This document shows, one piece after another, positions 1-24,623 of a stretch of 28,010 nucleotides of DNA. Where the stretch lies: contig CAYLWR010000022.1 of the NCBI GenBank assembly GCA_964387755.1, positions 1 to 28,010 on the forward strand. The letters are read 5' to 3'. The notes under the pieces were generated by a model. The model did not search any database, had not been told where the DNA came from, and saw only the letters and a program-made list of their open reading frames with translations. Source of the stretch: an uncultured Candidatus Saccharibacteria bacterium (lineage in GTDB: Bacteria; Patescibacteriota; Minisyncoccia; Phycocordibacterales; UBA9973). Position numbers and translations under genes: made by a program. Position 1 is the first letter of the stretch; each line of letters starts with the position of its first letter.

Positions 1-2556
1 TTCTTCGGGAAGTACGACTGAGATGACACCCTTGTTTCCGTGTCGTCCTGAGAGCTTGTCTCCAACTGAGATATTTCGAAGCTGCGCAACCTCAACAACG
101 ATTTTCTTGAGGACACCGCTTTCGAGCGTGTCGCCATTTTCACGAGAGAATACCTTCACACGGATCACGCGTCCGCGCTTGCCGTGATCCATTTTGAGTG
201 AGGTGTCTTTTTCATAGCGCGCCTTTTCCGCAAAGATACTTCGAAGGAGTCGCTCTTCTGGGGTAAGTTCAGTCTCACCCTTTGGAGTGATCTTTCCGAC
301 AATAATGTCGCCTTCTTTTACTTCTGCACCAACACGGATGATGCCTTCTTCATCAAGGTCCTTGAGTCTCGCTTCACCGACGTTCGGGATGTCACGGGTA
401 GTGATTTCTGGTCCGAGCTTGGTATCGCGCACTACTGAGGTGAACTCAGCGATATACATTGAGGTGAACTTTGAATCTTTGATGAGTCGTTCTGAGAGAA
501 TGATCGCGTCTTCGAAGTTTGCACCGTTCCATGACATGAATGCAACGCGCATGTTATGCCCGAGCGCAATCTGCCCATGATCAGTAGTAGAAGTGTCTGC
601 AAGGAGATCTCCCTTCTTCACCTTTTGTCCAACAGAGACAACTGGTCGCTGGTGAAATGCATTGAAGGCGTTAGTACGAGTGAAGTTGACGAGGGTATAG
701 GTGTGATCCTTACCAGTTTTGTCATTCTTGATCGTTACTTTCTTTGCATCAACGGCTACTACTTCACCTGCTTCTTCTGCGAGGACGAGACGACCTGAGT
801 ATGGCGCAGCAGATTCTTCCATGCCAGTTGCCACAAGCGGCGCTTCTGGACGAATGAGTGGTACTGCTTGTTTCTGCATGTTACTTCCCATGAGTGCACG
901 GTTCGCATCGTTGTGTTCGAGGAATGGCACCATGTTGGTCGCAACTGAGAACGCTTGGTTTGATGCAACATCAATGAAGTCCACCTCTTTTTTGTCGACG
1001 ATACCAGGAGCGGTCCGGATACGAGCTTCTACTCGATCAGGGAGCGTACCCTTATCATCCTGACGCATACCTGCGTGCGCAATGATGTAGTTCTTTTCTT
1101 CAGCAGCGTTCAGATAGACGATTTCGTCAGTGATCTTGCCACCCTTAACACGCGCATATGGAGTCTCGATGATACCGAATTCATTGATACGTGCGTAGAT
1201 CGCCAGACGAAGGATGAGACCAATGTTCGGACCTTCTGGAGTGTGGATCGGACACACACGACCATAGTGAGAGGTGTGTACGTCACGTACTTCGAGCGTT
1301 GCGCGCTCACGAGTCAGTCCCCCCGGTCCGAGTGCAGATACGGTGCGAAGCTCTTCGATTTCTGAGAGGATGTTGTCCTGTTGCATGAACTGTGAGAGCT
1401 GGTTGGTGGTAAAGAATTCCTTGATACGAGCCTGCAGCGGTCGCTGGTTTACGACCTGGATCGGAAGCGCGTTTGACGCATCGATCGTACTCATACGATC
1501 TTGTACGTTACGCTTGATCTGGGTGAATCCCATGTAGATCTTCGCTTGGAGCATTTCTCCAACGAAACGCACCCGTCGAGATGCGAGGTCATCGATATCA
1601 TCTGCAGTTGAGCCAGGAGTTGTATTGAGCGTGATGATGTGACTGATGATCACTGCGAGATCTTCTGCAGAGAGCGTCTTGCGATTCATTTCCTTGTCAC
1701 TCATGTCCATATCGAAGCGCTTGTTGAAGCGGAATCGACCAACCTGTGAGAGATCGTAGCGCTCTTCACTAAAGAGTGTTTGCACGAATTCGCGCGCGTT
1801 GTCGACGTTTGCAAGGTCACCATCACGAAGCTTGCGGTAGATCTCAACAAATGCTGAAGACTGATCCTTGACTGCGTCCTTTTCGATGGCAGCCTTGATG
1901 ATAGCTTGTGCAGTTTCGCCTTTGAAAAGCTTCACAATCATTGCATCCTCAGTGAGTCCGAGTGCACGCAAGAGTGTGATCACTGAGAACTTCTTTTTCT
2001 TGTCGATACGAACAAATACTTCGCCTGATGGATCACTTTCGATTTCGATCCATACACCACGGTTTGGAATTATCTTCGCGCCAAAGTATCGCTTGCCTTT
2101 GATTTCAAGTTCAGTAAAGAAGACACCACTCGAACGTGAGAGTTGCGGGATGATAGATCGTTCAACACCATTGATGATGAAGGTGCCGTGCGGCGTCATC
2201 ACCGGAATATCAGAAAGGAAAATTTCCTGCTCCTTTTCAGAACCAGTTTGCTTGTTGGTGAGTTTGATCCGAGCCTTGAGGCTGGTTTCAAGTGAGAGTT
2301 TATTTTCTTTTGCGTAGTGTTCGTCGTAGGTTGGCGGCGTCAAATGAAATGACACGAGATCGAGCTGGAACTTCTTGCCAGAGTAGTCCTGGATCGGCGT
2401 GAATTCTTTAAAGACTTCTTTGAGACCTTTTTCCAGGAGTACGTTGTATGAATCTATCTGATGTTGAATGAGGTTAGGAAATTCGACCAGTGGCTGTTTG
2501 TATTTTGAGAAATACTTTTTTGGACGGGGACCAGTGTGTGTTTTGGATTTGGACAT
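1..2556 (-). CDS. rpoB: DNA-directed RNA polymerase beta subunit (3'-partial, runs off the window start)
   Basis: Absent from the ORF track because it has no stop in the window. Manual translation from ATG 2556 gives MSKSKTHTGPRPKKYFSKY...GTFIINGVERSIIPQLSRSSGVFF, and the same frame reaches GDKLSGRHGNKGVISVVLPEE at positions ~80-1. Both ends are in one frame (852 codons). Confidence 0.98.
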   Translation of the reverse strand, partial: MSKSKTHTGPRPKKYFSKYKQPLVEFPNLIQHQIDSYNVLLEKGLKEVFKEFTPIQDYSGKKFQLDLVSFHLTPPTYDEHYAKENKLSLETSLKARIKLTNKQTGSEKEQEIFLSDIPVMTPHGTFIINGVERSIIPQLSRSSGVFFTELEIKGKRYFGAKIIPNRGVWIEIESDPSGEVFVRIDKKKKFSVITLLRALGLTEDAMIVKLFKGETAQAIIKAAIEKDAVKDQSSAFVEIYRKLRDGDLANVDNAREFVQTLFSEERYDLSQVGRFRFNKRFDMDMSDKEMNRKTLSAEDLAVIISHIITLNTTPGSTADDIDDLASRRVRFVGEMLQAKIYMGFTQIKRNVQDRMSTIDASNALPIQVVNQRPLQARIKEFFTTNQLSQFMQQDNILSEIEELRTVSALGPGGLTRERATLEVRDVHTSHYGRVCPIHTPEGPNIGLILRLAIYARINEFGIIETPYARVKGGKITDEIVYLNAAEEKNYIIAHAGMRQDDKGTLPDRVEARIRTAPGIVDKKEVDFIDVASNQAFSVATNMVPFLEHNDANRALMGSNMQKQAVPLIRPEAPLVATGMEESAAPYSGRLVLAEEAGEVVAVDAKKVTIKNDKTGKDHTYTLVNFTRTNAFNAFHQRPVVSVGQKVKKGDLLADTSTTDHGQIALGHNMRVAFMSWNGANFEDAIILSERLIKDSKFTSMYIAEFTSVVRDTKLGPEITTRDIPNVGEARLKDLDEEGIIRVGAEVKEGDIIVGKITPKGETELTPEERLLRSIFAEKARYEKDTSLKMDHGKRGRVIRVKVFSRENGDTLESGVLKKIVVEVAQLRNISVGDKLSGRHGNKGVISVVLPEE

Positions 2557-2568
2557 ATATAAAGACGC

Positions 2569-2595
2569 AAAAATGCCGGCCGCATAAGCGGTGGC
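2569..2595 (-). promoter_or_regulatory. Hairpin plus U-tract in the rpoB 5' leader (possible attenuator)
   Basis: Minus strand GCCACCGC-TTAT-GCGGCCGGC-ATTTTT, ending 12 nt before the rpoB ATG. Confidence 0.4.
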
Positions 2596-2665
2596 TTACC
2601 TTTCTAAACTCTCCTAATAAAATACAGAATGCAATCGCAACTCTTCCGGAAACTGTAAGGACCAT

Positions 2666-2694
2666 AGTGTAATAAATCTAGGAGAAAATGTCAA
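2666..2694 (-). promoter_or_regulatory. Sigma70 promoter for rpoB
   Basis: TTGACA (2694-2689), 17-nt spacer, TACACT (2671-2666). Confidence 0.75.
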
Positions 2695-2695
2695 T

Positions 2696-2721
2696 AAAAA
2701 AGCCGCTCCCGAAGGAGCGGC
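2696..2721 (-). terminator. Intrinsic terminator for the 2781-3032 gene
   Basis: GCCGCTCC-TTCG-GGAGCGGC followed by T6 on the minus strand. Confidence 0.85.
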
Positions 2722-2780
2722 GGATGTTTATAATCCCCACGATTAAAACAACCTAATCTGTACTTACTGAACCAATATAT

Positions 2781-3032
2781 TTACCAATGCTCCACTTTTC
2801 CCATATATCCACCTGCGTATTTAGTGAAGTCAACAACTTTTCCTAAACGACCACTTTCTTCAAGCTCACGCTTCATGCGATTATTTTCAAAAGCAATTTC
2901 CGCGTCTTTGTCCAAGAAAGTAATAGTTTTTAGTTCACCTGAGACTCTTATGGGCACATGGAGATCTAATGCTTTCAGAACAGGACGTTTTGCATACGAT
3001 GCAAGCATTGCTATATGTTGTCTGCGTTTCAT
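2781..3032 (-). CDS. Small AT-rich hypothetical protein (83 aa), stand-alone transcription unit
   Basis: ORF fills the trmD-rpoB gap and has its own consensus promoter and terminator. No recognisable domain. Confidence 0.65.
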   Translation of the reverse strand: MKRRQHIAMLASYAKRPVLKALDLHVPIRVSGELKTITFLDKDAEIAFENNRMKRELEESGRLGKVVDFTKYAGGYMGKVEHW

Positions 3033-3069
3033 TTGTAGTAAATTTAGATTTAAAAAATCAATTCAATTT

Positions 3070-3098
3070 ATGATATCATATATAAAATAATTTGTCAA
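3070..3098 (-). promoter_or_regulatory. Sigma70 promoter for the 83-aa ORF
   Basis: TTGACA (3098-3093), 17-nt spacer, TG-A-TATCAT (3075-3070). Confidence 0.7.
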
Positions 3099-3104
3099 TA
3101 TTCC

Positions 3105-3761
3105 CTATTTCTGCTGCTTTTTGCGCCATTCGTCTATTTTCTTGTGGTCGCCTTTGGTGAGGACTTTGGGTACGAGGTACTTTTTACCCTTATATACCAA
3201 TACTTCTGGGCGAGTATAGACTCGAGGACTTGCAATACGTGTTTCCTCGACACTCTCCCCTTTCCCAAGTACTCCCGAGATCTGTCGTGCAATCGCATCA
3301 GTCATCGCAAGTGCGGGAAGCTCCCCACCGGTGAGCGTGTAGGGGCCGATCGAGTATTCGTCGGCCTTGAGGATCTTGCGGACCCGATCATCGACGCCTT
3401 CATATCGACCGCAAATGAACACGATATTTGAGTACTGTTTCGCCATTTTCTTGGCGGTTGCATTATCAAAGAGTTTGCCGCTTGGAGAAAGCTGGATTAC
3501 CTTTACCTTTCCTCCGCCAGCTGGCGGATTCTTCATTTTCAATTTCGAAAAAGCATTGAGTATCGGTTCTGGCGTCATCACCATCCCTGGACCACCCCCA
3601 TACGGACGATCATCAGTTTTGTTGTGACGATCCCTGCTATAGTCTCTGATATTTTTCACCTCAAAAGACACCAGCTTTTTCTCAGCTGCACGCTTGAGCA
3701 TAGACTCGCCAATATACGAGTTGATTATTTCTGGGAAAATCGTGAGGAAATGGAATTTCAT
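3105..3761 (-). CDS. trmD: tRNA (guanine37-N1)-methyltransferase
   Basis: MKFHFLTIFPE start, DDRPYGGGPGMVM, ICGRYEGVDDRV, SIGPYTLTGGELPA. Start moved from 3779 to 3761 to match the family N-terminus. Confidence 0.97.
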   Translation of the reverse strand: MKFHFLTIFPEIINSYIGESMLKRAAEKKLVSFEVKNIRDYSRDRHNKTDDRPYGGGPGMVMTPEPILNAFSKLKMKNPPAGGGKVKVIQLSPSGKLFDNATAKKMAKQYSNIVFICGRYEGVDDRVRKILKADEYSIGPYTLTGGELPALAMTDAIARQISGVLGKGESVEETRIASPRVYTRPEVLVYKGKKYLVPKVLTKGDHKKIDEWRKKQQK

Positions 3762-3767
3762 GCATAC

Positions 3768-3793
3768 AAAAAACCACATTTCTGCGGTTTTTT
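3768..3793 (-). terminator. Terminator-like hairpin after khpA
   Basis: AAAAAACCGC-AGAAAT-GTGGTTTTTT, containing one G-U pair. Confidence 0.55.
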
Positions 3794-3800
3794 CAAGTTA

Positions 3801-4109
3801 TTACAAATCCTTGAGATCTGCCATTGCATCATCGAGGTTTGCAACATCAGGATGCTTGTACCCTGCTGGCTCGTTGATCTTGAGGTTCACCCGAGCATTA
3901 TGCTTCATCCCAACTACTCGCAAAAGTGTACGAATAGCCTTGGCGGTATTGCCAGATCGCCCAATAATCTTGCCCATATCATTTTGATTCACCGAGAGTG
4001 TGAGGAGTACTCCCATTTCGTCCACCGTGCGATCGATGACCACATCATTTGGATTTTCAACAAGTGCTTTTACGGTAAATTCGAGAAATTCTTTGTCAGA
4101 CATATGCAT
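3801..4109 (-). CDS. khpA: KH-domain RNA-binding protein (KhpA/YlqC-like)
   Basis: DMGKIIGRSGNTAKAIRTLL KH GxxG motif, in the usual position after rpsP. Confidence 0.9.
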   Translation of the reverse strand: MHMSDKEFLEFTVKALVENPNDVVIDRTVDEMGVLLTLSVNQNDMGKIIGRSGNTAKAIRTLLRVVGMKHNARVNLKINEPAGYKHPDVANLDDAMADLKDL

Positions 4110-4148
4110 ATATACATGAATCCAGTAATACTTATGATTGTATCATAT

Positions 4149-4212
4149 AAAAACACGTGCTTTTTTCGGTCCTCGGGTCAGTTCACCAGACACTCAAAAA
4201 GCACGTGTTTTT
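4149..4212. repeat. Perfect 17-bp inverted repeat with 30-nt spacer between rpsP and khpA
   Basis: AAAAACACGTGCTTTTT (4149-4165) and AAAAAGCACGTGTTTTT (4196-4212). Confidence 0.85.
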
Positions 4213-4216
4213 ATAT

Positions 4217-4519
4217 TTATTTCTTTGCTTCCTTACGCTTGGTAGTTGGAGCCTTCTTTGAGAGGACGTTCTTTTTCTTGCCTTCCACGATGCCTTCTTT
4301 CACAAGCATATTGTGCGCAGTTGCTGATGGCTGTGCACCCATCTTGATCCAGTGCTGGATACGGTCCTTATCAAATGACACTACATCAGTTTTCACCGTG
4401 TGAGAGCCGAGGATCTCGAGGAATTTACCACTTTGAGCAGCATTTTTACTATCAGTAACAACCAAGCGAAAAGCTGGTTCATTCTTGCGGCCAATGCGTT
4501 GTAGTCTGATCTTTAACAT
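4217..4519 (-). CDS. rpsP: 30S ribosomal protein S16
   Basis: MLKIRLQRIGRKNEPAFRLVVTDSK...GKFLEILGSH...WIKMGAQPS. Confidence 0.98.
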   Translation of the reverse strand: MLKIRLQRIGRKNEPAFRLVVTDSKNAAQSGKFLEILGSHTVKTDVVSFDKDRIQHWIKMGAQPSATAHNMLVKEGIVEGKKKNVLSKKAPTTKRKEAKK

Positions 4520-4585
4520 GTAGGGCAGATAATAGCAGGAACTGTGAGATTATGCAATACAAAGCTCGCATGTTAAAGTGTCACC

Positions 4586-6517
4586 ATGCAAGACGTCTCC
4601 GTCGGCTCTATATATGAGGGCACAATCAACATCTCTACCAAAGGCATTGGCTTTGTGAAGGTCCGCGACCCCAAAATGGCAGTGGAGGTTCCCCGCGAGG
4701 CACTCAACCGCGCATTTCATGGCGACACCGTAAAGGTTGAAATAACGGAGCTCCCAAACGCAGTACATGACAACCCATACGGCAAAGTCCTCGACATCAC
4801 TCGCCGAGCCAAGATCGGGTATTCTGGCACCCTCTCATTTGAACAAGGTGCGCACTGCATCGTGACCAATGATGGCCGCATGTACACTCCGATCACTATT
4901 CCTGGCGAGAAACTTTCTGGTGCCAAACAAGGTGACAAAGTATTTTGTGCGATCACTGACTGGCCAGATCCAATGAGCGCTCCAAGTGGTGAGGTGGTGA
5001 AGGTGCTTGGTAAGCCGCTCGAGAACAATGCCGAAATGCTCTCGCTCGCACTCGAAAAAGGATTTGATAACGAATATCCAGCAGCTGTAGAAGCTGAAGC
5101 AAAGGCGATCAGTGAGCATGGCATCACCGAAGAAGAGAAAAGTAATCGTCGAGACTTCCGCCAGATCACCACATTCACGATCGACCCTGAGGATGCAAAA
5201 GACTTCGATGATGCGATTTCGGTGCAATTTTTGGAAGATGAAAAAATTGAAATCGGAATCCATATTGCCGATGTGTCACATTATGTACAACCTGATACTG
5301 CCTTGGACAAAGAGGCGTATCGCCGTGCAACGAGCGTGTACCTCGTCGATCGTACGATCCCGATGCTCCCTGAGGCGCTCTCGAACGATCTCTGTTCGCT
5401 CAATCCTGATGTCGATCGCCTCACCATGAGTGCAGTATTTATCATTGATAAACATATGAACGTCGTCGACGAATGGTATGGGCGCACGGTCATTCACTCA
5501 CATCAGCGATTTACCTATGAAAATGCTCAAAAGGTACTCGATACCAAAGACGGGCCGTTTTTGAAAGAACTCCAAGCGGCACTTGCGATCGCACAAGATC
5601 TCGAGAAGAAACGATTTGCAGCTGGCGCCATGGTACTCGATACGGTTGAAGTGAAATTCAAACTCGATGAAAACGGCGTACCACTCAGTGCGTATGTAAA
5701 GGAACGCGGACAAACACACCACATGATCGAAGAACTCATGCTGCTCGCGAACCGCAAAGTTGCCGAATTCATCACCAAAGGAGACAAAGATAACAGTCGA
5801 GTATTCGTCTACCGCGTGCACGATGCACCTGATCCAGAGCGTATTGAAGATCTCAAAACATTCCTCAAGCGTATGGGATACAACCTCAAGACAAATGAGG
5901 ATGGCATCATTCCAGCGCGGACCCTCAACGACCTCGTCCAGTCACTCGAAGGCAAACCTGAAAAAGAAACCATTCAAACTGCGATTGTTCGCTCAATGGC
6001 AAAGGCTATCTACAGCACCAAAAACATCGGTCACTACGGACTTGCATTTGAGTTCTATACCCACTTCACGAGTCCGATCCGACGCTATCCTGATACGATC
6101 GTGCATCGCCTCCTTTCGCACTATCTTGCGAACGGTGTTATTCCAAAAGAAATGTGGGAATACTACGATCGTGTATGTTTGCATTCATCACAACGTGAAA
6201 AGGAAGCAGCCGATGCAGAGCGTGCATCCATCAAATACAAGCAGGTTGAATACATGTCGACCCGTGTCGGGCAGATCTTTGACGGGACAATCACCGGCGT
6301 ATCACCGAATGGGATATTTGTGGAAGAAAAAGAAACTCGCTGTGAAGGTATGGTGCGGCTTCGCGATATCGGCAACGATTACTTCGAATATAATGACAAG
6401 GAACTGGCAATCATCGGTCGCAAGACCCGCAAAGAATTTCGCATTGGCGACAAGGTTCGGTTCAAAGTGACGAATGCTGACATCGTGAAGCGATTACTTG
6501 ATTATGCACTGGTGTAG
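4586..6517 (+). CDS. rnr: Ribonuclease R (RNB family)
   Basis: Cold-shock OB folds, TIDPEDAKDFDDA catalytic motif, YTHFTSPIRRYPD, C-terminal S1 domain. The RNase R versus RNase II call is by overall resemblance. Confidence 0.92.
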   Translation: MQDVSVGSIYEGTINISTKGIGFVKVRDPKMAVEVPREALNRAFHGDTVKVEITELPNAVHDNPYGKVLDITRRAKIGYSGTLSFEQGAHCIVTNDGRMYTPITIPGEKLSGAKQGDKVFCAITDWPDPMSAPSGEVVKVLGKPLENNAEMLSLALEKGFDNEYPAAVEAEAKAISEHGITEEEKSNRRDFRQITTFTIDPEDAKDFDDAISVQFLEDEKIEIGIHIADVSHYVQPDTALDKEAYRRATSVYLVDRTIPMLPEALSNDLCSLNPDVDRLTMSAVFIIDKHMNVVDEWYGRTVIHSHQRFTYENAQKVLDTKDGPFLKELQAALAIAQDLEKKRFAAGAMVLDTVEVKFKLDENGVPLSAYVKERGQTHHMIEELMLLANRKVAEFITKGDKDNSRVFVYRVHDAPDPERIEDLKTFLKRMGYNLKTNEDGIIPARTLNDLVQSLEGKPEKETIQTAIVRSMAKAIYSTKNIGHYGLAFEFYTHFTSPIRRYPDTIVHRLLSHYLANGVIPKEMWEYYDRVCLHSSQREKEAADAERASIKYKQVEYMSTRVGQIFDGTITGVSPNGIFVEEKETRCEGMVRLRDIGNDYFEYNDKELAIIGRKTRKEFRIGDKVRFKVTNADIVKRLLDYALV

Positions 6518-18397: not shown

Positions 18398-18430
18398 ATT
18401 ATAGCATACTTTACATATCTTGTAAAGTAT
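18398..18430 (-). promoter_or_regulatory. Promoter for the DGR-type target, overlapped by an operator-like palindrome
   Basis: TTTACA, 17-nt spacer, TG-C-TATAAT (18403-18398). Perfect inverted repeat ATACTTTACA-N5-TGTAAAGTAT at 18406-18430. AAAGGA SD before the ATG. Confidence 0.7.
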
Positions 18431-18484
18431 TGCCCAATCGTGTAAAACCTTTATTTATCAATGGTACTGCGTCATCAATAGGAT

Positions 18485-18796
18485 GTGGACGATATTAATG
18501 AAGTTATTAAGAAAGCGGAACATTATCGCTTTGAAGATGAAGAATCTAAAGTTTTTCTAAACTCTATTTCTGCACTTCCAACTTCAAAGAAACGACTCAA
18601 GAAATCGATCATTGAAAGGATGGAAATGCTAATTATTGCATACACTACACTAGCTACTTTTGTCCCAGACGAAACGATTGAGTACCTAGAACAACATCCA
18701 GAAGATATGAAAAAAGTTTATCTCGATATGCTTGATGATATGGAAAAATTTGAAAAAGAGATTATAAAAAAGATCTGTCATCGACAGAAGAAATGA
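18485..18796 (+). CDS. Hypothetical helical protein (103 aa)
   Basis: GTG-start ORF filling the gap, convergent with the HNH gene. No recognisable motif. Confidence 0.6.
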   Translation: MDDINEVIKKAEHYRFEDEESKVFLNSISALPTSKKRLKKSIIERMEMLIIAYTTLATFVPDETIEYLEQHPEDMKKVYLDMLDDMEKFEKEIIKKICHRQKK

Positions 18797-18810
18797 GGTT
18801 TGTAAAATCT

Positions 18811-20145
18811 CTATTTTTTGAGAGCGTTAATAGTCATATCTCTTATCTTAACCAGATCACCAGGAGAATAAACATCTGAAGCAAAATAGAACTCCTCATT
18901 AAATAAATCATCAAGGATTTTACTAGCTATAGTTTCCAGACCCATAAAAAGTCTCAATTTTTCACTATCCTCTTTACTTTCATCGACACGGTCAAGCATG
19001 GCACTGTAGTCATAACTCCAGTGATCAGTGAGAGACTTGTCGGAAGTAAAATCCCAAATATACATATTTCTTTCGTCCTCATCAGTGTCGTACTCTTTGA
19101 TTTTTTCTATAGGCAACTCTTTTTGGTTCTCAATAAAATCAATTATCTTATCACGCAGGGCAATCTGAAACTGTTCACGATTAAAGTTGGGGTATGGGCT
19201 AAGAACATGAGCAAGTATGATGCTTTTTTCTTCAAGCATCATCATTCTTCCTTGAATAAATCCTTCAAGCTGTTCTTGTGTGCGTTCTTTAGGTTCTTCA
19301 GGTGCATTCTCTTTCTTCTCCTTGATACTTGTCGTCCAAGCTTCAATGAGATCTCGCCACGCCGACCAGTTGGCTGTTTCTTCAAGCTTGGGCGCTAGTT
19401 CTTTATCAAGATCAGTAATAATCTGCTCATCGGAGTATCCCCAACACTTACGCAACGCGGTTACATATTGATTGAGCAAAATTGCCGCCCTCCGAGGATC
19501 ATAGTAACTAAACGCATTGCTTGCTTTATTTTTTATCTGAGAAAGTTTTTGATCTATAGGCTTCAGGCTACGATTAAAGAGAATTCCGCCAAGTTTGTTG
19601 ATAAAATTCTCTACACTGTGCTGGGTCGGTTTGCCATCAGCATCATACTTAATATAGGTATCTGCAGAAATGTCGATTGCGGTGAGCAAATCTTCAATAC
19701 CATATTTTCGCAAGAGCGTCCGTATCGTTCCCTCACCATTTTCACTAATGGTGAATGGTTCTATGCGAGCATGAGCATAGTCTTTTATCATTTCAAGTGT
19801 TTCCTTATCGAGATTGGATAGTGATTCTTTCCACTGAAACATGAGCTCGATTTGCTCTCGACGTTCCTGTATGAGTTCAAGTTGTTTACGCTGCTTATCT
19901 ATGGCAGACGTATCGGTCAATCGTTTATCACTTTTTCCTAAATTACAAGCATAACAACTCGTTATGAGATTGATGATTTCACTACTGCCGCCTTTTGATA
20001 CAGGGTCAATGTGGTCTACATGGAGAACAATGTCAGGAGCTTTTTGACCACAATACTGGCAAGTAAAATGATCACGTTTAAATACCTCAAATCGAACAGA
20101 TTTTGGAATCGACACACGCTTTGGCACTTCAGCAGGTTTAGCCAT
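18811..20145 (-). CDS. HNH endonuclease with a long unknown helical C-terminal region
   Basis: RFEVFKRDHFTCQYCG...HVDHIDPVSKGG...NLITSCYACNLGK in the first ~75 aa. Confidence 0.9.
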   Translation of the reverse strand: MAKPAEVPKRVSIPKSVRFEVFKRDHFTCQYCGQKAPDIVLHVDHIDPVSKGGSSEIINLITSCYACNLGKSDKRLTDTSAIDKQRKQLELIQERREQIELMFQWKESLSNLDKETLEMIKDYAHARIEPFTISENGEGTIRTLLRKYGIEDLLTAIDISADTYIKYDADGKPTQHSVENFINKLGGILFNRSLKPIDQKLSQIKNKASNAFSYYDPRRAAILLNQYVTALRKCWGYSDEQIITDLDKELAPKLEETANWSAWRDLIEAWTTSIKEKKENAPEEPKERTQEQLEGFIQGRMMMLEEKSIILAHVLSPYPNFNREQFQIALRDKIIDFIENQKELPIEKIKEYDTDEDERNMYIWDFTSDKSLTDHWSYDYSAMLDRVDESKEDSEKLRLFMGLETIASKILDDLFNEEFYFASDVYSPGDLVKIRDMTINALKK

Positions 20146-20163
20146 ATCTTTGAAAATCGAATT

Positions 20164-20385
20164 CTACAATACAAGCGCAGACTGATCAATATTTGAAGGG
20201 ATACTCTCAACAACCGTGCCGCAGCCTTTCTTGCAGGCATACTTTCCATTATTTTCTCCGTAGCTGTCTTCCATCTTCCACCATCCGTCAGGGTGAGTAC
20301 AACAAACCTCACATGGCTTAATATGATTCTCGTCATACATATATCTACCCTCGCCATTACATTTTTTGCATTTTTCCTCGGTCAT
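20164..20385 (-). CDS. Small Cys-rich putative zinc-binding protein (73 aa)
   Basis: CKKCNGEG, CEVCCTH and CKKGC. Lies 18 nt upstream of the HNH gene and is divergent from the recombinase. Confidence 0.65.
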   Translation of the reverse strand: MTEEKCKKCNGEGRYMYDENHIKPCEVCCTHPDGWWKMEDSYGENNGKYACKKGCGTVVESIPSNIDQSALVL

Positions 20386-20506
20386 ATGCGTATCTTTCCA
20401 TAAAAGAGGGTTGTAAATCAAGTACTTCTATACTCACACGACCACACTACATATTTCTTAGTCTGCATAGCTATACACCTCAAACCAGTCTGTCATTAAT
20501 ATATAC

Positions 20507-21823
20507 ATGGAAATGTTCGCAACAGCCCAAACAGGCTTCCCCGAGGTAGTGGTAACCCAAAAAGTAAGGTACTGCTTATATGCCAGAAAGTCGACAGAAC
20601 AAGACGAGAAACAAGCGCTTTCGATTGATTCACAGATCAAAGAAATGATGGCGATTGCCGAGAGAGACGGCATTGAGATTATAGATATTCGACGAGAATC
20701 TCACTCTGCAAAAGATTCAGGGCAACGCCCCGTATTTAAAGAATTGCTTGATGATATCAGACGAGGCAGGTATACAGGCATCCTAACCTGGGCACCAGAT
20801 CGACTTTCTCGAAACGCAGGAGATCTCGGGTCGCTTGTTGATTTAATGGATGAGAATAAGCTGGTTGAGATACGGACATACGGGCAGCAGTTTAGAAACT
20901 CCCCAAATGAGAAGTTCCTCTTGATGATTCTCTGTTCACAAGCCAAACTTGAAAATGACAATAAGAGTATCAATGTGAAGCGTGGACTAAAGACGCGGTG
21001 CGAAATGGGACTATGGCCTGCACAAGCACCGACTGGATATGTAAAGGAGAAACGGATGGATCGAAAATGCCAAACGCTGATCGATCCAGACCGTGCCCCG
21101 ATCGTTAAGAAAATCTTTGAAAAAGCAGCATATGAGAAGTGGAGCGGACGAAAGATATACCATTGGCTCAAATTTGAACTCAATTTCAGAAGTGCTGCGA
21201 GTAACAAGAACCTCACACTGAGCAATATATACATGATGTTAGGAAACCCCTTTTATTACGGGGTTTTTGAATACCCGAGAAAGAGCGGCAACTGGTACAA
21301 AGGAACGTATGAGCCAATCATCACCAAAGAACTGTTTGATCAAGTACAGGAGCAAATGAGAAACAATATTGTCAGATCAGAAAGCAAAGAGTTTGCCTTT
21401 ACCAAACTCATGACCTGCGGACTCTGCCAATCAGGCATCTGTGCCGATGAGAAATTCAAGAAGCCAAAGAATGGCAATATTCACCGCTATGTCTACTACG
21501 GCTGTACAAGATCGAAAGACAAGAACTGCAAATGCGGCTTTCTTGAAGAGAAGGAGCTTATCAAGCAGTTTGAAGATCTCCTCGACACGATCGATGTGGA
21601 TGAGATCAGTATCAAGGAAAAGCTGAAGACTGAAGTGGAACGGTTTAAGAAGTTTCAAAGAGTACTGTCGGGAAGCAAGGAGAAAATCGACACAAGCGAT
21701 GTTGATATACGCAACTATGCGAAGTACCTCTTGCGAGACGGTGCTGATGTTGAGAAGCGAGAATTGCTTGGATGTTTTAAGAGCAAGATAGTGATGAAGC
21801 ATAAGGTGATATCACTAGTATAG
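20507..21823 (+). CDS. Large serine recombinase (resolvase, recombinase and Zn-ribbon domains)
   Basis: YARKS with catalytic Ser29, SAKDSGQRPVF, DRLSRN, APTGY recombinase domain, CGLC...YYGC zinc ribbon. Confidence 0.96.
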   Translation: MEMFATAQTGFPEVVVTQKVRYCLYARKSTEQDEKQALSIDSQIKEMMAIAERDGIEIIDIRRESHSAKDSGQRPVFKELLDDIRRGRYTGILTWAPDRLSRNAGDLGSLVDLMDENKLVEIRTYGQQFRNSPNEKFLLMILCSQAKLENDNKSINVKRGLKTRCEMGLWPAQAPTGYVKEKRMDRKCQTLIDPDRAPIVKKIFEKAAYEKWSGRKIYHWLKFELNFRSAASNKNLTLSNIYMMLGNPFYYGVFEYPRKSGNWYKGTYEPIITKELFDQVQEQMRNNIVRSESKEFAFTKLMTCGLCQSGICADEKFKKPKNGNIHRYVYYGCTRSKDKNCKCGFLEEKELIKQFEDLLDTIDVDEISIKEKLKTEVERFKKFQRVLSGSKEKIDTSDVDIRNYAKYLLRDGADVEKRELLGCFKSKIVMKHKVISLV

Positions 21824-21845
21824 AAAAAAGGAGCCGAAGCTCCTT
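21824..21845 (-). terminator. Intrinsic terminator between the recombinase and the 96-aa gene
   Basis: AAGGAGC-TTCG-GCTCCTT followed by TTTT on the minus strand. Confidence 0.8.
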
Positions 21846-21868
21846 AGTTAAAAATCATTAAAATAAAC

Positions 21869-22159
21869 TTATGAATTTTGTGTTTTGTAGTACTCAACCA
21901 TTTGTTTGATGGAAGCCGCGTAACGCTCTCTGGCCTGTTTGACACTGTAGTCAAAGGCAACCAAGGCCATATCTGCAATTTCTTGCGGATCTTGCGCTGA
22001 TTTTTTCATTGCGTCATACAAACCTTGTCGTTTGAGGTCTTTTACAGCCTCTTCAAGGTCTTTTGTTTCCAACTTTTCTTTCCTTAAAAAGGAAAACACG
22101 GTTGTGAGCTTTTTGAACATCATGATGTTCATGAGCTCTTGGATGAACTCTTTTTTCAT
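21869..22159 (-). CDS. Hypothetical helical protein (96 aa), stand-alone unit
   Basis: ORF with a consensus promoter and its own terminator. Confidence 0.65.
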   Translation of the reverse strand: MKKEFIQELMNIMMFKKLTTVFSFLRKEKLETKDLEEAVKDLKRQGLYDAMKKSAQDPQEIADMALVAFDYSVKQARERYAASIKQMVEYYKTQNS

Positions 22160-22235
22160 AATTTATTTCTTTAAAGAACACGTATCCCATTACTAGGATT
22201 GGGGTACCAAAATTGTTTATACCTAGTATGGTCAT

Positions 22236-22264
22236 ATCTTATCATGTTTTTATGAAAAAGTCAA
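22236..22264 (-). promoter_or_regulatory. Sigma70 promoter for the 96-aa gene
   Basis: TTGACT (22264-22259), 17-nt spacer, TG-A-TAAGAT (22241-22236). Confidence 0.7.
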
Positions 22265-22311
22265 CCGATCGTAGTGGCTCAACATCCTTGCATTCGGACT
22301 ACAAAGTAGCT

Positions 22312-23010
22312 TTATTTCCCTCTCGTAATGTCAGCCTGAAGCGAAATATATTCATCCCCAGCCGCTTCAATTTGTTGTGACGTAGGCTCATCGTTTATAC
22401 CTTCTTCTAAACGTATCCGACGCTCGTCAAGGATCTCGCCTTCATACATCCAATACGCAGGTCCTTGTACTTGCCACTTACTTCCAAGCGCTCTTTGAGC
22501 TGCTAGCGAGAGCGAAATTACTTCTCCTCGAAACTCAACATGCTTCTGATCATCTGCAACATGACACACAATACTTTCGTCTCTGATGAATTCGAGCTGC
22601 GCCCCAGGCGGTATCTCAGCCATTTTGAAATTGAATGCGGAGCGTCTCTTGCGAGCAACTTCGATTGCCTCTGCATCTTCTTTTGTCTCAATACCTACAT
22701 CACGAGATGGTGTCACATCTTCAAGTGCAAGAAGCTTGAGAATAGAAACGATGCGCTCGGGAGCAATAGTGAAGAACTCTCTTTTCGGATTCTTTCTGTG
22801 ATCACCAAACGCATCGTGGAGTGCTTTTTCAACCTGGCTTACATCAGCAACGCAGACGGCATAATAACACTCAAACGGAAGCGGCACAGACGTCGATCGA
22901 GACAATTCCAAAATGCGTTGCTCAACGGAGGTGGTTGTTTTGCCGATTTTCACATATCCCGGCATTGCCTCGTTGGTTAAGATATATACTATTCCTGCTG
23001 GGTCATTCAT
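22312..23010 (-). CDS. GIY-YIG nuclease (T5orf172/MUG113-like) with a C-terminal RAMA-like domain
   Basis: GIVYILTN...YVKIGKT...R...EKALH...REFF N-terminus. C-terminus FKMAEIPPGAQLEF...VEFRGEVISLSLAA...GPAYWMYEGEIL. Confidence 0.85.
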   Translation of the reverse strand: MNDPAGIVYILTNEAMPGYVKIGKTTTSVEQRILELSRSTSVPLPFECYYAVCVADVSQVEKALHDAFGDHRKNPKREFFTIAPERIVSILKLLALEDVTPSRDVGIETKEDAEAIEVARKRRSAFNFKMAEIPPGAQLEFIRDESIVCHVADDQKHVEFRGEVISLSLAAQRALGSKWQVQGPAYWMYEGEILDERRIRLEEGINDEPTSQQIEAAGDEYISLQADITRGK

Positions 23011-23024
23011 AAATAATTTAATAG

Positions 23025-23630
23025 TTAAGCATCTCTCATCCGCATCGGCCTACTCATATCATACTGACAAATAGATCTATCATTATGAGCGGCATCAATG
23101 AGGAATTTCAGTTTTGCGGGATCATTTGCAATCTTTTCCCATGGCACAACAGAAATTAGAGCTTCTTTCTTTAAGAGATTATCAATAATTCTTTCTGGCA
23201 TAAGAGGATAACGAGCATCATATTCAGCTCTTGTATCTATAGACATCCAATTAGTATTCTCAGGGTGAACAATCTCTTTCTCGTACTTATGAGGTGCGGT
23301 ATATGTTGTACAACCAGTCGATGGTAATTTGATTACCAATATCCCGGATTTTTTATTAACACTCCCATCAAACATACTGGAGTATGTTTCCCAGTCAACA
23401 TGTTTTCGTCCCCATGTTTCAGTTCCAACAAGGACAATTGTTACTGTCGAATCGCGCAAATATTCATCTCTGATCTTTGCTCTTATCGCTTCAGCTGAGA
23501 GTGAGTCAGAAATATCTCCAACGCTTACAGAGTAGTCATTAAAAATACCATGCTGCGTATTCAATCTACACAGTTCATCCTTATAAAATTGATCGTTATC
23601 GTGATGATAACTTATAAATACATTGTGCAT
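23025..23630 (-). CDS. TIR-domain protein, Thoeris ThsB/MTH538 (DUF1863)-like
   Basis: VFISYHH, IRDEYLRDSTVTIVLVGTETWGRKHVDWE (putative catalytic Glu81), GILVIKLP. Confidence 0.92.
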   Translation of the reverse strand: MHNVFISYHHDNDQFYKDELCRLNTQHGIFNDYSVSVGDISDSLSAEAIRAKIRDEYLRDSTVTIVLVGTETWGRKHVDWETYSSMFDGSVNKKSGILVIKLPSTGCTTYTAPHKYEKEIVHPENTNWMSIDTRAEYDARYPLMPERIIDNLLKKEALISVVPWEKIANDPAKLKFLIDAAHNDRSICQYDMSRPMRMRDA

Positions 23631-23638
23631 ATTACTTT

Positions 23639-24370
23639 CTATGATTCTTCTGATAATGACGGCTTTGCTGGGATTTCTTTTACTTTTTTACTCTTTGATT
23701 GTTGTAAAATCAATCGCTTCATGCTTTCTCTGTAGTTCATGAGACGATTATTGACAACCGTTAGATCCTTCTCTAGTTCAGCAAAGTGCGTGTACTTAGT
23801 TTGTATGGACTGAGGATCGATGTCACCTTTTGCATCTTTCAGTTGCGCATCGTACCAATGTCTAAAGCGCGCTTGCCACTGCGTAAGATGTGGGCGTAGA
23901 CCTTCATTCAGAACACTTACTGATAAATCAATGATTTTAGTGGTGCTTGGTTGTTTCAGTTTACTTACTGGGATGTCTTTAATAAGTTCACGCGTAATCG
24001 AAAAGAAGTTGTACCACGAATCATAGATTTCTGAAATTACATCATTTTTTAGATCAATTGGAAGACCGATTTTTCTTGTGCTTAACTCTACCCAGATTTT
24101 ATAGGCAATCTGTCTATCTTCCCTATTTGGTTTAAATTTGAGTTTGTGCTGTCCTAACCCCATTTCTGCTTCATCAATTTCAAAATCTGAACCAGTGTAT
24201 TTACCCAATAGCTTCAGTACCCATCTAATACCTAAAACAAGACCAACAATAATAAGAATAGCAAGAAGGCTAAATTTGAATGAAAAAGTAAAGTCACGAT
24301 CGACAGAGAATGTAAAATAAGGAGACTTGGCTACTGGAGGCATAGATTGGGTTTCTTGTGATGGAGGCAT
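23639..24370 (-). CDS. Single-TM, helical hypothetical protein (243 aa), first gene of the TIR operon
   Basis: Start re-called at ATG 24370, 14 nt downstream of TG-T-TACAAT (24390-24385). TM at residues ~33-49, then IWVELSTRKIGLP, YDSWYNFF, LNEGLRPHLTQWQARFRHWY. Confidence 0.8.
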   Translation of the reverse strand: MPPSQETQSMPPVAKSPYFTFSVDRDFTFSFKFSLLAILIIVGLVLGIRWVLKLLGKYTGSDFEIDEAEMGLGQHKLKFKPNREDRQIAYKIWVELSTRKIGLPIDLKNDVISEIYDSWYNFFSITRELIKDIPVSKLKQPSTTKIIDLSVSVLNEGLRPHLTQWQARFRHWYDAQLKDAKGDIDPQSIQTKYTHFAELEKDLTVVNNRLMNYRESMKRLILQQSKSKKVKEIPAKPSLSEES

Positions 24371-24428
24371 AGTGATATAGGCGGATTGTAACATAGAAAA
24401 CATCGCGCCGGGCATTCTATTTGGTAAT

Positions 24429-24460
24429 ACAAAAAACCACCGAATTTGGTGGTTTTTTGT
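24429..24460. terminator. Terminator downstream of tRNA-Gln
   Basis: ACAAAAAACCACC-GAATTT-GGTGGTTTTTTGT, a 13-bp perfect stem. Confidence 0.85.
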
Positions 24461-24549: not shown

Positions 24550-24623
24550 TGGCTGCCCGACAGGGACTCGAACCCCAATTTACGGTGCCAGAAACCGGCG
24601 TCCTACCATTAGACGATCGGGCA
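24550..24623 (-). tRNA. tRNA-Gln(CTG) with encoded CCA
   Basis: Cloverleaf with acceptor TGCCCGA/TCGGGCA, D-arm GTCT/GGAC, anticodon loop TT-CTG-GC, T-loop TTCGAGT, and 3' end G-CCA. Confidence 0.93.

Follow-up and report, generated by a model that had tools for sequence, protein, structure and literature searches.

We found that two neighboring genes of the window, by which we mean the entire 28,010-nucleotide stretch of DNA analyzed here, very probably form a two-gene type VI Thoeris system, in which a 243-amino-acid membrane protein would be the effector ThsG and a TIR protein would be ThsB, and not a system of a new kind. Type VI Thoeris (ThsB and ThsG) has been described in a preprint (Yirmiya et al., bioRxiv 10.64898/2025.12.03.692087). 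The assignment is made from sequence, and three observations carry it: the membrane protein is homologous to a validated ThsG, TIR genes are linked to its family as a whole, and the catalytic glutamate of the TIR is conserved.

The cassette (22312-24390) comprises three genes on the minus strand, all co-oriented and separated by gaps of 8 and 14 nt in the list of open reading frames. Open reading frame, tRNA, and domain calls confirmed the layout given in a preliminary description of this DNA, that is, three closely spaced genes between a serine recombinase and tRNA-Gln. The features are collected in Table 1. The start of the membrane protein gene at 24370 is backed by the N-termini of its closest homologs, which open with MP.

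Table 1. Features of the cassette and its surroundings within the window.
Feature	Position	Strand	Basis
thsG-like effector gene, 243 aa, ATG at 24370	23639-24370	-	ORF and homology to validated ThsG
thsB, 201-aa ThsB-type TIR protein	23025-23630	-	PF08937, PADLOC ThsB and PDC-M50B models
T5orf172/MUG113 (GIY-YIG-like) nuclease gene, 232 aa, 14 nt 3' of thsB	22312-23010	-	PF10544, PDC-S57
TGTTACAAT, extended -10-like motif, 14 nt before the thsG-like ATG	24385-24393	-	Motif match
Intrinsic-terminator-like hairpin and T-run, 3' of tRNA-Gln	~24429-24460	-	dG -18.5 kcal/mol, z -6.2
tRNA-Gln(CTG), edge of low-GC island	24550-24623	-	tRNA prediction and GC profile
Large serine recombinase of the cassette-bearing island	20507-21823	+	Resolvase, Recombinase, and Zn_ribbon_recom domains

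The 'DUF6650 and TM' form of type VI has been validated with systems of E. coli ACN001 and E. coli S1 and with one on a Gammaproteobacteria metagenome scaffold; Table S1 entry 2638504641 is one verified system with such an effector, and Ga0209396_100023224 is a second (bioRxiv 10.64898/2025.12.03.692087). In E. coli ACN001 (NZ_CP007442.1, 865360-866708) a 243-amino-acid TM protein is directly followed by a TIR protein, and since this TIR protein contains an exact copy of the Table S1 domain 2638504641, starting at its first residue, we identify the locus as the published system. When the E. coli ACN001 chromosome was searched with an HMM of the window family, the effector was recovered with an E value of 1.8e-15 and nothing else was significant. 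Furthermore, hhalign aligned the window family with E. coli ACN001 ThsG at a probability of 97.9% (E 4e-13) and, family against family, with E. coli ThsG at one of 98.6% (E 5.9e-16, 114 columns). Pairwise identity between the 243-amino-acid protein and E. coli ACN001 ThsG is only 25%; the motifs common to both families are T-[RK]-[KR], D, S, R, N, LT..Q, R-W, and Q. The preliminary description had proposed an undescribed system, a claim that we abandon because its membrane protein maps to a described component, ThsG.

The window and E. coli ACN001 share the arrangement of a two-gene cassette, effector then TIR, with an effector of 243 amino acids and a TIR of 201-205 amino acids; both effectors have an N-terminal membrane anchor and a homologous helical C-terminal domain, the catalytic Glu is kept, and each cassette is carried by a mobile element, which is a serine-recombinase island and a P2-like prophage, respectively. 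They differ in that the effector of the window has one hydrophobic segment while E. coli ACN001 ThsG has two. Unlike validated type VI systems, the window has a T5orf172 nuclease gene appended 14 nt downstream. Its host is of Patescibacteria type, a phylum that is not listed for type VI (bioRxiv 10.64898/2025.12.03.692087). Host species of ThsG-family members were not found among the listed rows of Table S3 of that preprint.

The 201-amino-acid TIR protein matches PF08937 (ThsB_TIR) with an E value of 6.6e-20, is matched by both the ThsB and the PDC-M50B models of PADLOC, and is 37% identical to the validated ThsB of E. coli ACN001 (E 2e-23). Of 94 aligned TIR sequences (the window TIR, TIRs linked to the family, and a pair of references), 93 keep its Glu81, and this residue lines up with the VRYE Glu of B. 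cereus ThsB, which is the catalytic position. The initial reading of this protein as a ThsB-like TIR that keeps its catalytic-position Glu81 stands on the Pfam match, the invariance, and the VRYE alignment. Multi-TIR operons with a TIR-SLOG effector likewise contain TIRs that are 58-65% identical to the ThsB of the window. Given that such near relatives are paired with TIR-SLOG effectors, the signal is not readable from the TIR and perhaps is not 2'cADPR here.

We next consider how consistently the effector family is accompanied by a TIR. Across 80 species-representative genome loci of the 243-amino-acid protein family, with flanks of up to 4 kb, a same-strand ThsB TIR was directly adjacent to the family member in 60 (28 upstream, 23 downstream, and 9 on both sides). 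Counting 13 more loci with a TIR elsewhere in the fetched flank, 73/80 contained a TIR and 7 did not. In metagenomes, TIRs approximately 75-93% identical to fragments of Ga0209396_100023224 adjoin family members (L079, L101, and others); a scan for the exact published scaffold, Ga0209396_1000232, recovered only relatives at this level of fragment identity. Whether homologs of the TM protein consistently neighbor ThsB-like TIRs had been put forward as a check, and the adjacency and flank counts answer it in the affirmative. The earlier suggestion that the TM protein and a ThsB-like TIR make up a Thoeris-type signaling pair, the former as effector, was also very probably right.

The third gene product matches PF10544 (T5orf172/MUG113, a GIY-YIG-like family) with an E value of 1.7e-17 and PADLOC PDC-S57 with an E value of 1.7e-74, the latter over residues 1-203 and model positions 1-208 of 212. 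Of the label 'GIY-YIG/RAMA nuclease' given previously, the first half is retained and the second is not: RAMA was not detected, since residues 101-232 match no Pfam family at E<=10, and the whole protein matches no further Pfam family at E<=0.1. Neither this nuclease nor the TIR has PDB relatives by sequence. The nuclease gene shares the island with the Thoeris pair and is probably co-transcribed with thsB.

We also considered whether the cassette is a system of more than two genes. One version would limit a three-component variant to the window and a sister island, L122, with the nuclease serving as a ThsB-signal-dependent output or as a DNA-damage trigger; separately, the signal of this ThsB clade might be one other than 2'cADPR, an idea drawn from the TIR relatives that pair with TIR-SLOG effectors. 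We regard this as improbable. The more general version, in which the nuclease belongs to the Thoeris pair as an integral second effector or as a trigger module, seems to us quite improbable. It is favored by the 14-nt gap to thsB on the same strand with no predicted terminator between them, and by L122, where an orthologous, 86%-identical nuclease lies near ThsG and ThsB. Even there, however, a DnaJ-domain gene parts the nuclease from thsB, and the nuclease gene occurs in 0/80 ThsG-family loci of other genomes. Furthermore, the match to PDC-S57, a single-gene candidate, is almost end to end; full-length nuclease homologs stand on plasmids beside RM, WYL, or other defense genes with no TIR nearby; and in validated type VI systems two genes suffice, with 2'cADPR as the signal (bioRxiv 10.64898/2025.12.03.692087). 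Since none of the 80 loci has the nuclease and it occurs by itself elsewhere, it is most likely, as judged from these gene neighborhoods, a co-resident passenger and a separate single-gene defense candidate, not a core part of Thoeris. This was one of two roles originally suggested for it, as an unrelated passenger. PDC-S57 is a computational candidate of a single gene, whereas its counterpart in the window sits in an operon-like array with the Thoeris pair.

It is very unlikely that the 243-amino-acid protein instead represents an effector or sensor family that has yet to be described, bears no relationship to the known effectors of Thoeris, and would define a new Thoeris type. Such a reading draws on how little the protein resembles in annotation databases. 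As previously described, it is a single-TM helical protein: one hydrophobic segment spans residues ~30-56, and in an AF2 model (pLDDT 86.8) the TM helix is followed by a domain made up of helices only. It has no match in Pfam (E<=0.1), PADLOC (2023), or NCBIfam, and a Pfam scan detected no SIR2, SLOG, Macro, or DUF2270 domain, in agreement with the first impression that SIR2, SLOG, and Macro are missing. Scanning 88 members of the family against Pfam yielded noise only, and a profile search of PDB sequences with the family returned coiled-coil noise only, so that there is no related solved structure by sequence. ESM Atlas and AFDB cluster searches returned unannotated or misnamed relatives, and tblastn of the TM protein against a phage collection gave no match. 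Set against this are a shared architecture and gene order and a profile match to the validated effector of E. coli ACN001 that is significant. The family itself is large: it comprises 2206 clusters at 90% identity, its relatives were confirmed in 256 stretches from the collection of species-representative genomes, and the basic and polar residues R99, K100, R127, N155, and R159 of its helical domain are invariant. The label PF28423.1 is attached to two relatives. The AFDB/ESM Atlas fold search gave a single weak lead, a cluster with DUF6650 in 13% of its members.

Lack of a direct DUF6650 match would also speak for a new type. PF20355.3 (DUF6650) has no match in the 243-amino-acid protein or in 88 family representatives. 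The validated E. coli ACN001 effector likewise has no PF20355.3 match, and the absence of this Pfam match therefore does not discriminate. PF20355 searches of the window's own genome, five family-carrying genomes, and E. coli ACN001 found nothing at the family locus. One sub-threshold PF20355 match (E 0.02) was seen on a contig other than that of the family locus. Alignment of the window family by hhalign with two single DUF6650 proteins was not significant, nor was that of its profile with soluble DUF6650 (a 38-sequence alignment; E 0.74). The E. coli ThsG subfamily aligned with soluble DUF6650 at an E value of 3e-4 and a probability of 39%, and one of its members has a precomputed PF20355.5 match. 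Any link of the window family to DUF6650 is thus weak and indirect, by way of the ThsG subfamily of E. coli alone. Soluble ThsG (DUF6650, PF20355), found in Bacillus type VI, has the same proposed role of a 2'cADPR-binding effector and shows weak, register-consistent similarity to the window family around an L-[ES]-[DT]-[KR]-[RK] helix motif. It differs in that it has approximately 158 amino acids and no TM helix.

Other Thoeris types were compared as well. Type I, with the SIR2-SLOG effector ThsA, was ruled out as the 243-amino-acid protein has no Pfam match at E<=0.1. Type II, with a TM-Macro effector, was ruled out by the missing Macro match and by the all-helical model after the TM helix. 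Type II (TM-Macro, His-ADPR) and type V (DUF2270 with three TM helices, 3'cADPR) share with the type VI pair proposed here the logic of a ThsB signal that turns on a membrane-disrupting effector, while the effector of the window, lacking Macro and DUF2270 domains, belongs to another family and would be expected to respond to another signal. Next to no credence attaches to a pair that works without a diffusible signal, the TIR itself depleting NAD+ as the effector and the membrane protein serving as sensor or anchor: some bacterial TIRs are NADase effectors, but this one is a ThsB-type TIR (PF08937) and groups with TIRs that make cADPR isomers in type VI, and cells expressing validated ThsG respond to exogenous 2'cADPR (bioRxiv 10.64898/2025.12.03.692087).

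For the type VI pair, we propose that upon phage infection ThsB, through Glu81, would convert NAD+ to a cyclic ADP-ribose isomer; by analogy with validated type VI, this could be 2'cADPR. A single N-terminal helix would anchor ThsG to the membrane, and the helical domain of ThsG, with R99, K100, R127, N155, and R159, is expected to bind the ThsB signal. ThsG would then probably form a homo-oligomer and compromise the membrane, so that growth is arrested before phage progeny are released. We infer signal identity, ThsG oligomerization, membrane killing, and defense activity in this host. In AF3 models ThsG is a hexameric ring (bioRxiv 10.64898/2025.12.03.692087). Four copies of residues 62-226 of the window protein, its soluble domain, were modeled as a complex and reached a score of 0.38, where the mark is 0.42; this counts neither for nor against an oligomer.

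The main value of this analysis is a correction: the membrane partner is, in all probability, ThsG, and the locus would add a copy of type VI Thoeris, not a new defense system. The widespread TM-ThsG family, which exceeds 2,000 clusters at 90% identity, is missed by Pfam DUF6650, PADLOC 2023, and NCBIfam, and annotation pipelines can therefore be expected to go on flagging it as unknown. Our data also suggest that type VI Thoeris reaches ultra-small Patescibacteria-type genomes, and in an episymbiont, a membrane effector that acts by abortive infection would be of biological interest.

The cassette is very probably the cargo of a serine-recombinase island beside tRNA-Gln in a small (~0.5-0.9 Mb class) Patescibacteria-type genome, the nuclease gene sharing both the island and, probably, the transcript. 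GC content is approximately 0.33-0.43 over 16000-24400 and 0.47-0.51 past 25200. The cassette occurs sporadically, in 1/36 same-genus genomes and in none of 24 other families searched; this distribution and the low-GC region are as expected of mobile defense cargo. A direct repeat of the tRNA-Gln 3' end was looked for at the island edge and none was found. Recombinases 58-61% identical to that of the window (tblastn) lie less than ~150 nt from ThsG-ThsB pairs in the Patescibacteria loci L010, L011, L021, and L001, and L122 carries one that is 88% identical. Large serine-recombinase islands seem to be a recurrent vehicle for the ThsG-ThsB cassette.

Finally, the single extended -10 element noted earlier is present, as TGTTACAAT; the motif class, with 4 occurrences in the window and 2.2 expected, is not enriched, so that its role as the operon promoter is no more than plausible. 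The hairpin downstream of tRNA-Gln folds better than any of 200 shuffles (0/200 fold as well), which fits insulation of the three-gene operon from tRNA-Gln transcription and is compatible with a promoter of the operon's own.

Our data indicate that the membrane protein and TIR genes of this operon, judged from homology, form a Thoeris-type TIR and membrane-effector pair of an already described kind (type VI). Thoeris types V-XI were defined by Yirmiya et al. in December 2025; type VI comprises ThsB and ThsG (DUF6650), with N-terminal TM helices in some cases, signals through 2'cADPR, and was verified in E. coli and B. subtilis, one verified system coming from E. coli ACN001 and the other 'DUF6650 and TM' system being Ga0209396_100023224 (bioRxiv 10.64898/2025.12.03.692087). 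We found that in E. coli ACN001 (NZ_CP007442.1) the gene for a 243-aa 'hypothetical protein' (865360-866091) lies immediately ahead of one for a TIR protein, the translation of which contains Table S1 domain entry 2638504641 of that study letter for letter. The window-family profile matches exactly this effector (E 1.8e-15), hhalign of the window family against it gives 97.9% (E 4e-13), and the comparison between the window family and the E. coli subfamily reaches 98.6% (E 5.9e-16), invariant motifs being common to both. Furthermore, metagenomic and genomic TIRs that directly adjoin window-family members (at loci L079, L101 and others) match fragments of Ga0209396_100023224 at ~75-93% identity. 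The preliminary description had regarded the system as possibly undescribed and its TM protein as a possible new effector or sensor for a TIR-derived signal; since the protein is homologous to the E. coli ACN001 effector and such TIRs lie beside its family, the novelty falls while the membrane-effector pairing stands, and the 243-aa protein is placed by this homology within the TM-ThsG family. The verified ACN001 system (NZ_CP007442.1 860000-871000) lies within a P2-like prophage, flanked by a DinI-family gene and degraded portal and tape-measure genes, and RefSeq still names its effector 'hypothetical protein' (WP_000286099.1).

Features of the operon and its surroundings
Feature	Position	Strand	Remarks
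ThsG-like TM protein gene	23639-24370	minus	ORF, 243 aa from ATG at 24370
ThsB-type TIR gene	23025-23630	minus	ORF, 201 aa
T5orf172/MUG113 nuclease gene	22312-23010	minus	ORF, 232 aa
tRNA-Gln(CTG)	24550-24623	minus	same strand as operon
Large serine recombinase gene	20507-21823	plus	
Promoter-like motif TGTTACAAT	24385-24393		14 nt ahead of ATG 24370
Strong hairpin and T-run	~24429-24460		between tRNA-Gln and operon; dG -18.5, z -6.2
444-aa protein gene	18811-20385	minus	N-terminal HNH domain PF01844, then ~370 aa unassigned
96-aa ORF	21869-22159	minus	downstream of nuclease, no family match

The 243-aa protein had no match in Pfam, PADLOC or NCBIfam. It contains a single hydrophobic segment (~residues 30-56), and its AF2 model (pLDDT 86.8, confident) consists of a TM helix, a β-hairpin and an all-helical domain, in that order. 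Its relatives number 2206 among 90%-identity clusters and 596 among 50% representatives, with hosts including Patescibacteria (Saccharibacteria among them), Alpha- and Gammaproteobacteria (including Pseudomonas), Chlorobiaceae, Saprospiraceae and Fervidobacterium. The preliminary description had raised the question of whether these homologs neighbor TIR genes. Indeed, a TIR HMM applied to 80 species-representative loci of the family detected an adjacent same-strand TIR gene at 60 (28 upstream, 23 downstream, 9 on both sides) and a TIR elsewhere within the flank at 13 more, leaving 7 without one.

The PF20355.3 model matched neither the window protein nor its relatives, which is uninformative since the validated E. 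coli ACN001 effector also lacks a match. Against soluble DUF6650, the window-family profile was not significant and the E. coli ThsG subfamily aligned weakly (probability 39%, E 3e-4), keeping register around the L-x-[DT]-[KR]-[RK] helix; one member of this subfamily carries a precomputed PF20355.5 match. The Fervidobacterium sp. UBA5837 member of the family (L079:4007-4546), with a called length of 179 aa, has no hydrophobic helix at its N-terminus. Among the 50% representatives, several of 160-180 aa may also be truncated or without a TM helix, and such short members could represent natural forms intermediate between the TM-bearing and the soluble ThsG. Two members (P0096, P0099) carry the precomputed label PF28423.1, from a newer release than the Pfam library used here, which may stand for a new family covering the TM-ThsG effector.

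The 201-aa protein belongs to the ThsB-type TIRs (PF08937, E 6.6e-20) and is 37% identical to the E. coli ACN001 TIR (E 2e-23). As previously claimed, it keeps the Glu at the ThsB catalytic position: Glu81 lines up with that of the VRYE motif in B. cereus ThsB, and 93 of 94 aligned TIR sequences carry it. Four metagenome contigs (L109, L114, L115, L117; ~1600-5500 in each) carry three ThsB-type TIR genes around a ~655-aa TIR-SLOG (LD_cluster2) protein. Since the last TIR in these operons is 58-65% identical to the window ThsB, one TIR clade serves different Thoeris effector types, and the TIR alone does not fix the signal molecule. We consider it somewhat probable, as a rough estimate, that the window ThsB signals through 2'cADPR. 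By analogy with validated systems, ThsB would sense infection and make a cADPR isomer, which ThsG would bind before damaging the membrane. R99, K100, R127, N155 and R159 are invariant in the ThsG family and would line a putative pocket of a probably oligomeric ThsG.

The three co-oriented genes, with gaps of 8 and then 14 nt, lie between the recombinase and tRNA-Gln as first described. The 243-aa start is favored over the 254-aa and 342-aa readings because the closest homologs open with MP... at the aligned site. The proposed extended -10 element, TGTTACAAT, is present; as the operon promoter it is plausible rather than demonstrated, since the window contains 4 sites of this motif class versus 2.2 expected. 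The hairpin is consistent with the operon having its own promoter.

GC content is 0.33-0.43 across ~16000-24400 versus 0.47-0.51 beyond 25200, where core genes lie (FtsX/FtsE/PrfB region); for the left edge of the island, no direct repeat matching the 3' end of tRNA-Gln was found. A ThsG-like gene occurs in only 1 of 36 species genomes of the same genus and in none of 24 further families of the order, and other Patescibacteria loci also have a similar serine recombinase next to the ThsG-ThsB pair. On sequence evidence, the ThsG-ThsB cassette is mobile defense cargo. A sister island (L122:247-6572, Logan DRR213774 contig) shares the recombinase (88% identical), ThsG (79%), ThsB (86%) and T5orf172 gene; there, two different ThsB genes flank ThsG, and the inserted genes encode a DnaJ-domain protein, a sigma-70 protein and an unknown protein of 360 aa. 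The 444-aa HNH protein matches an NCBIfam IscB-type HNH region (E 4.5e-15, well under the family cut-off) and, weakly, PADLOC PtuB and REase; with its neighbor ORF it may be a second defense-like module of the island. This neighbor, a 73-aa Cys-rich ORF, precedes it.

The 232-aa nuclease had been suggested to be either a second effector or an unrelated passenger. It is probably co-transcribed with the thsG-thsB pair, and the passenger reading is favored: the nuclease was found at none of the 80 ThsG-family loci, its full-length homologs occur alone on plasmids, next to a WYL-domain gene or an RM system and away from any TIR, and the sister-island ortholog (86% identical) is parted from thsB by the DnaJ-domain gene. 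Its GIY-YIG-like character is upheld by the T5orf172/MUG113 family match; the RAMA label is unconfirmed, the C-terminal half having no Pfam match at E<=10. It matches the PADLOC single-gene candidate PDC-S57 nearly end to end (E 1.7e-74) and, from these comparisons, is most readily interpreted as an independent gene of the PDC-S57 type sharing the island. The identical metagenome contigs L123 and L124 also keep the 96-aa ORF, which comes with a promoter-like site of its own (TTGACT-17-TAAGAT with TG).
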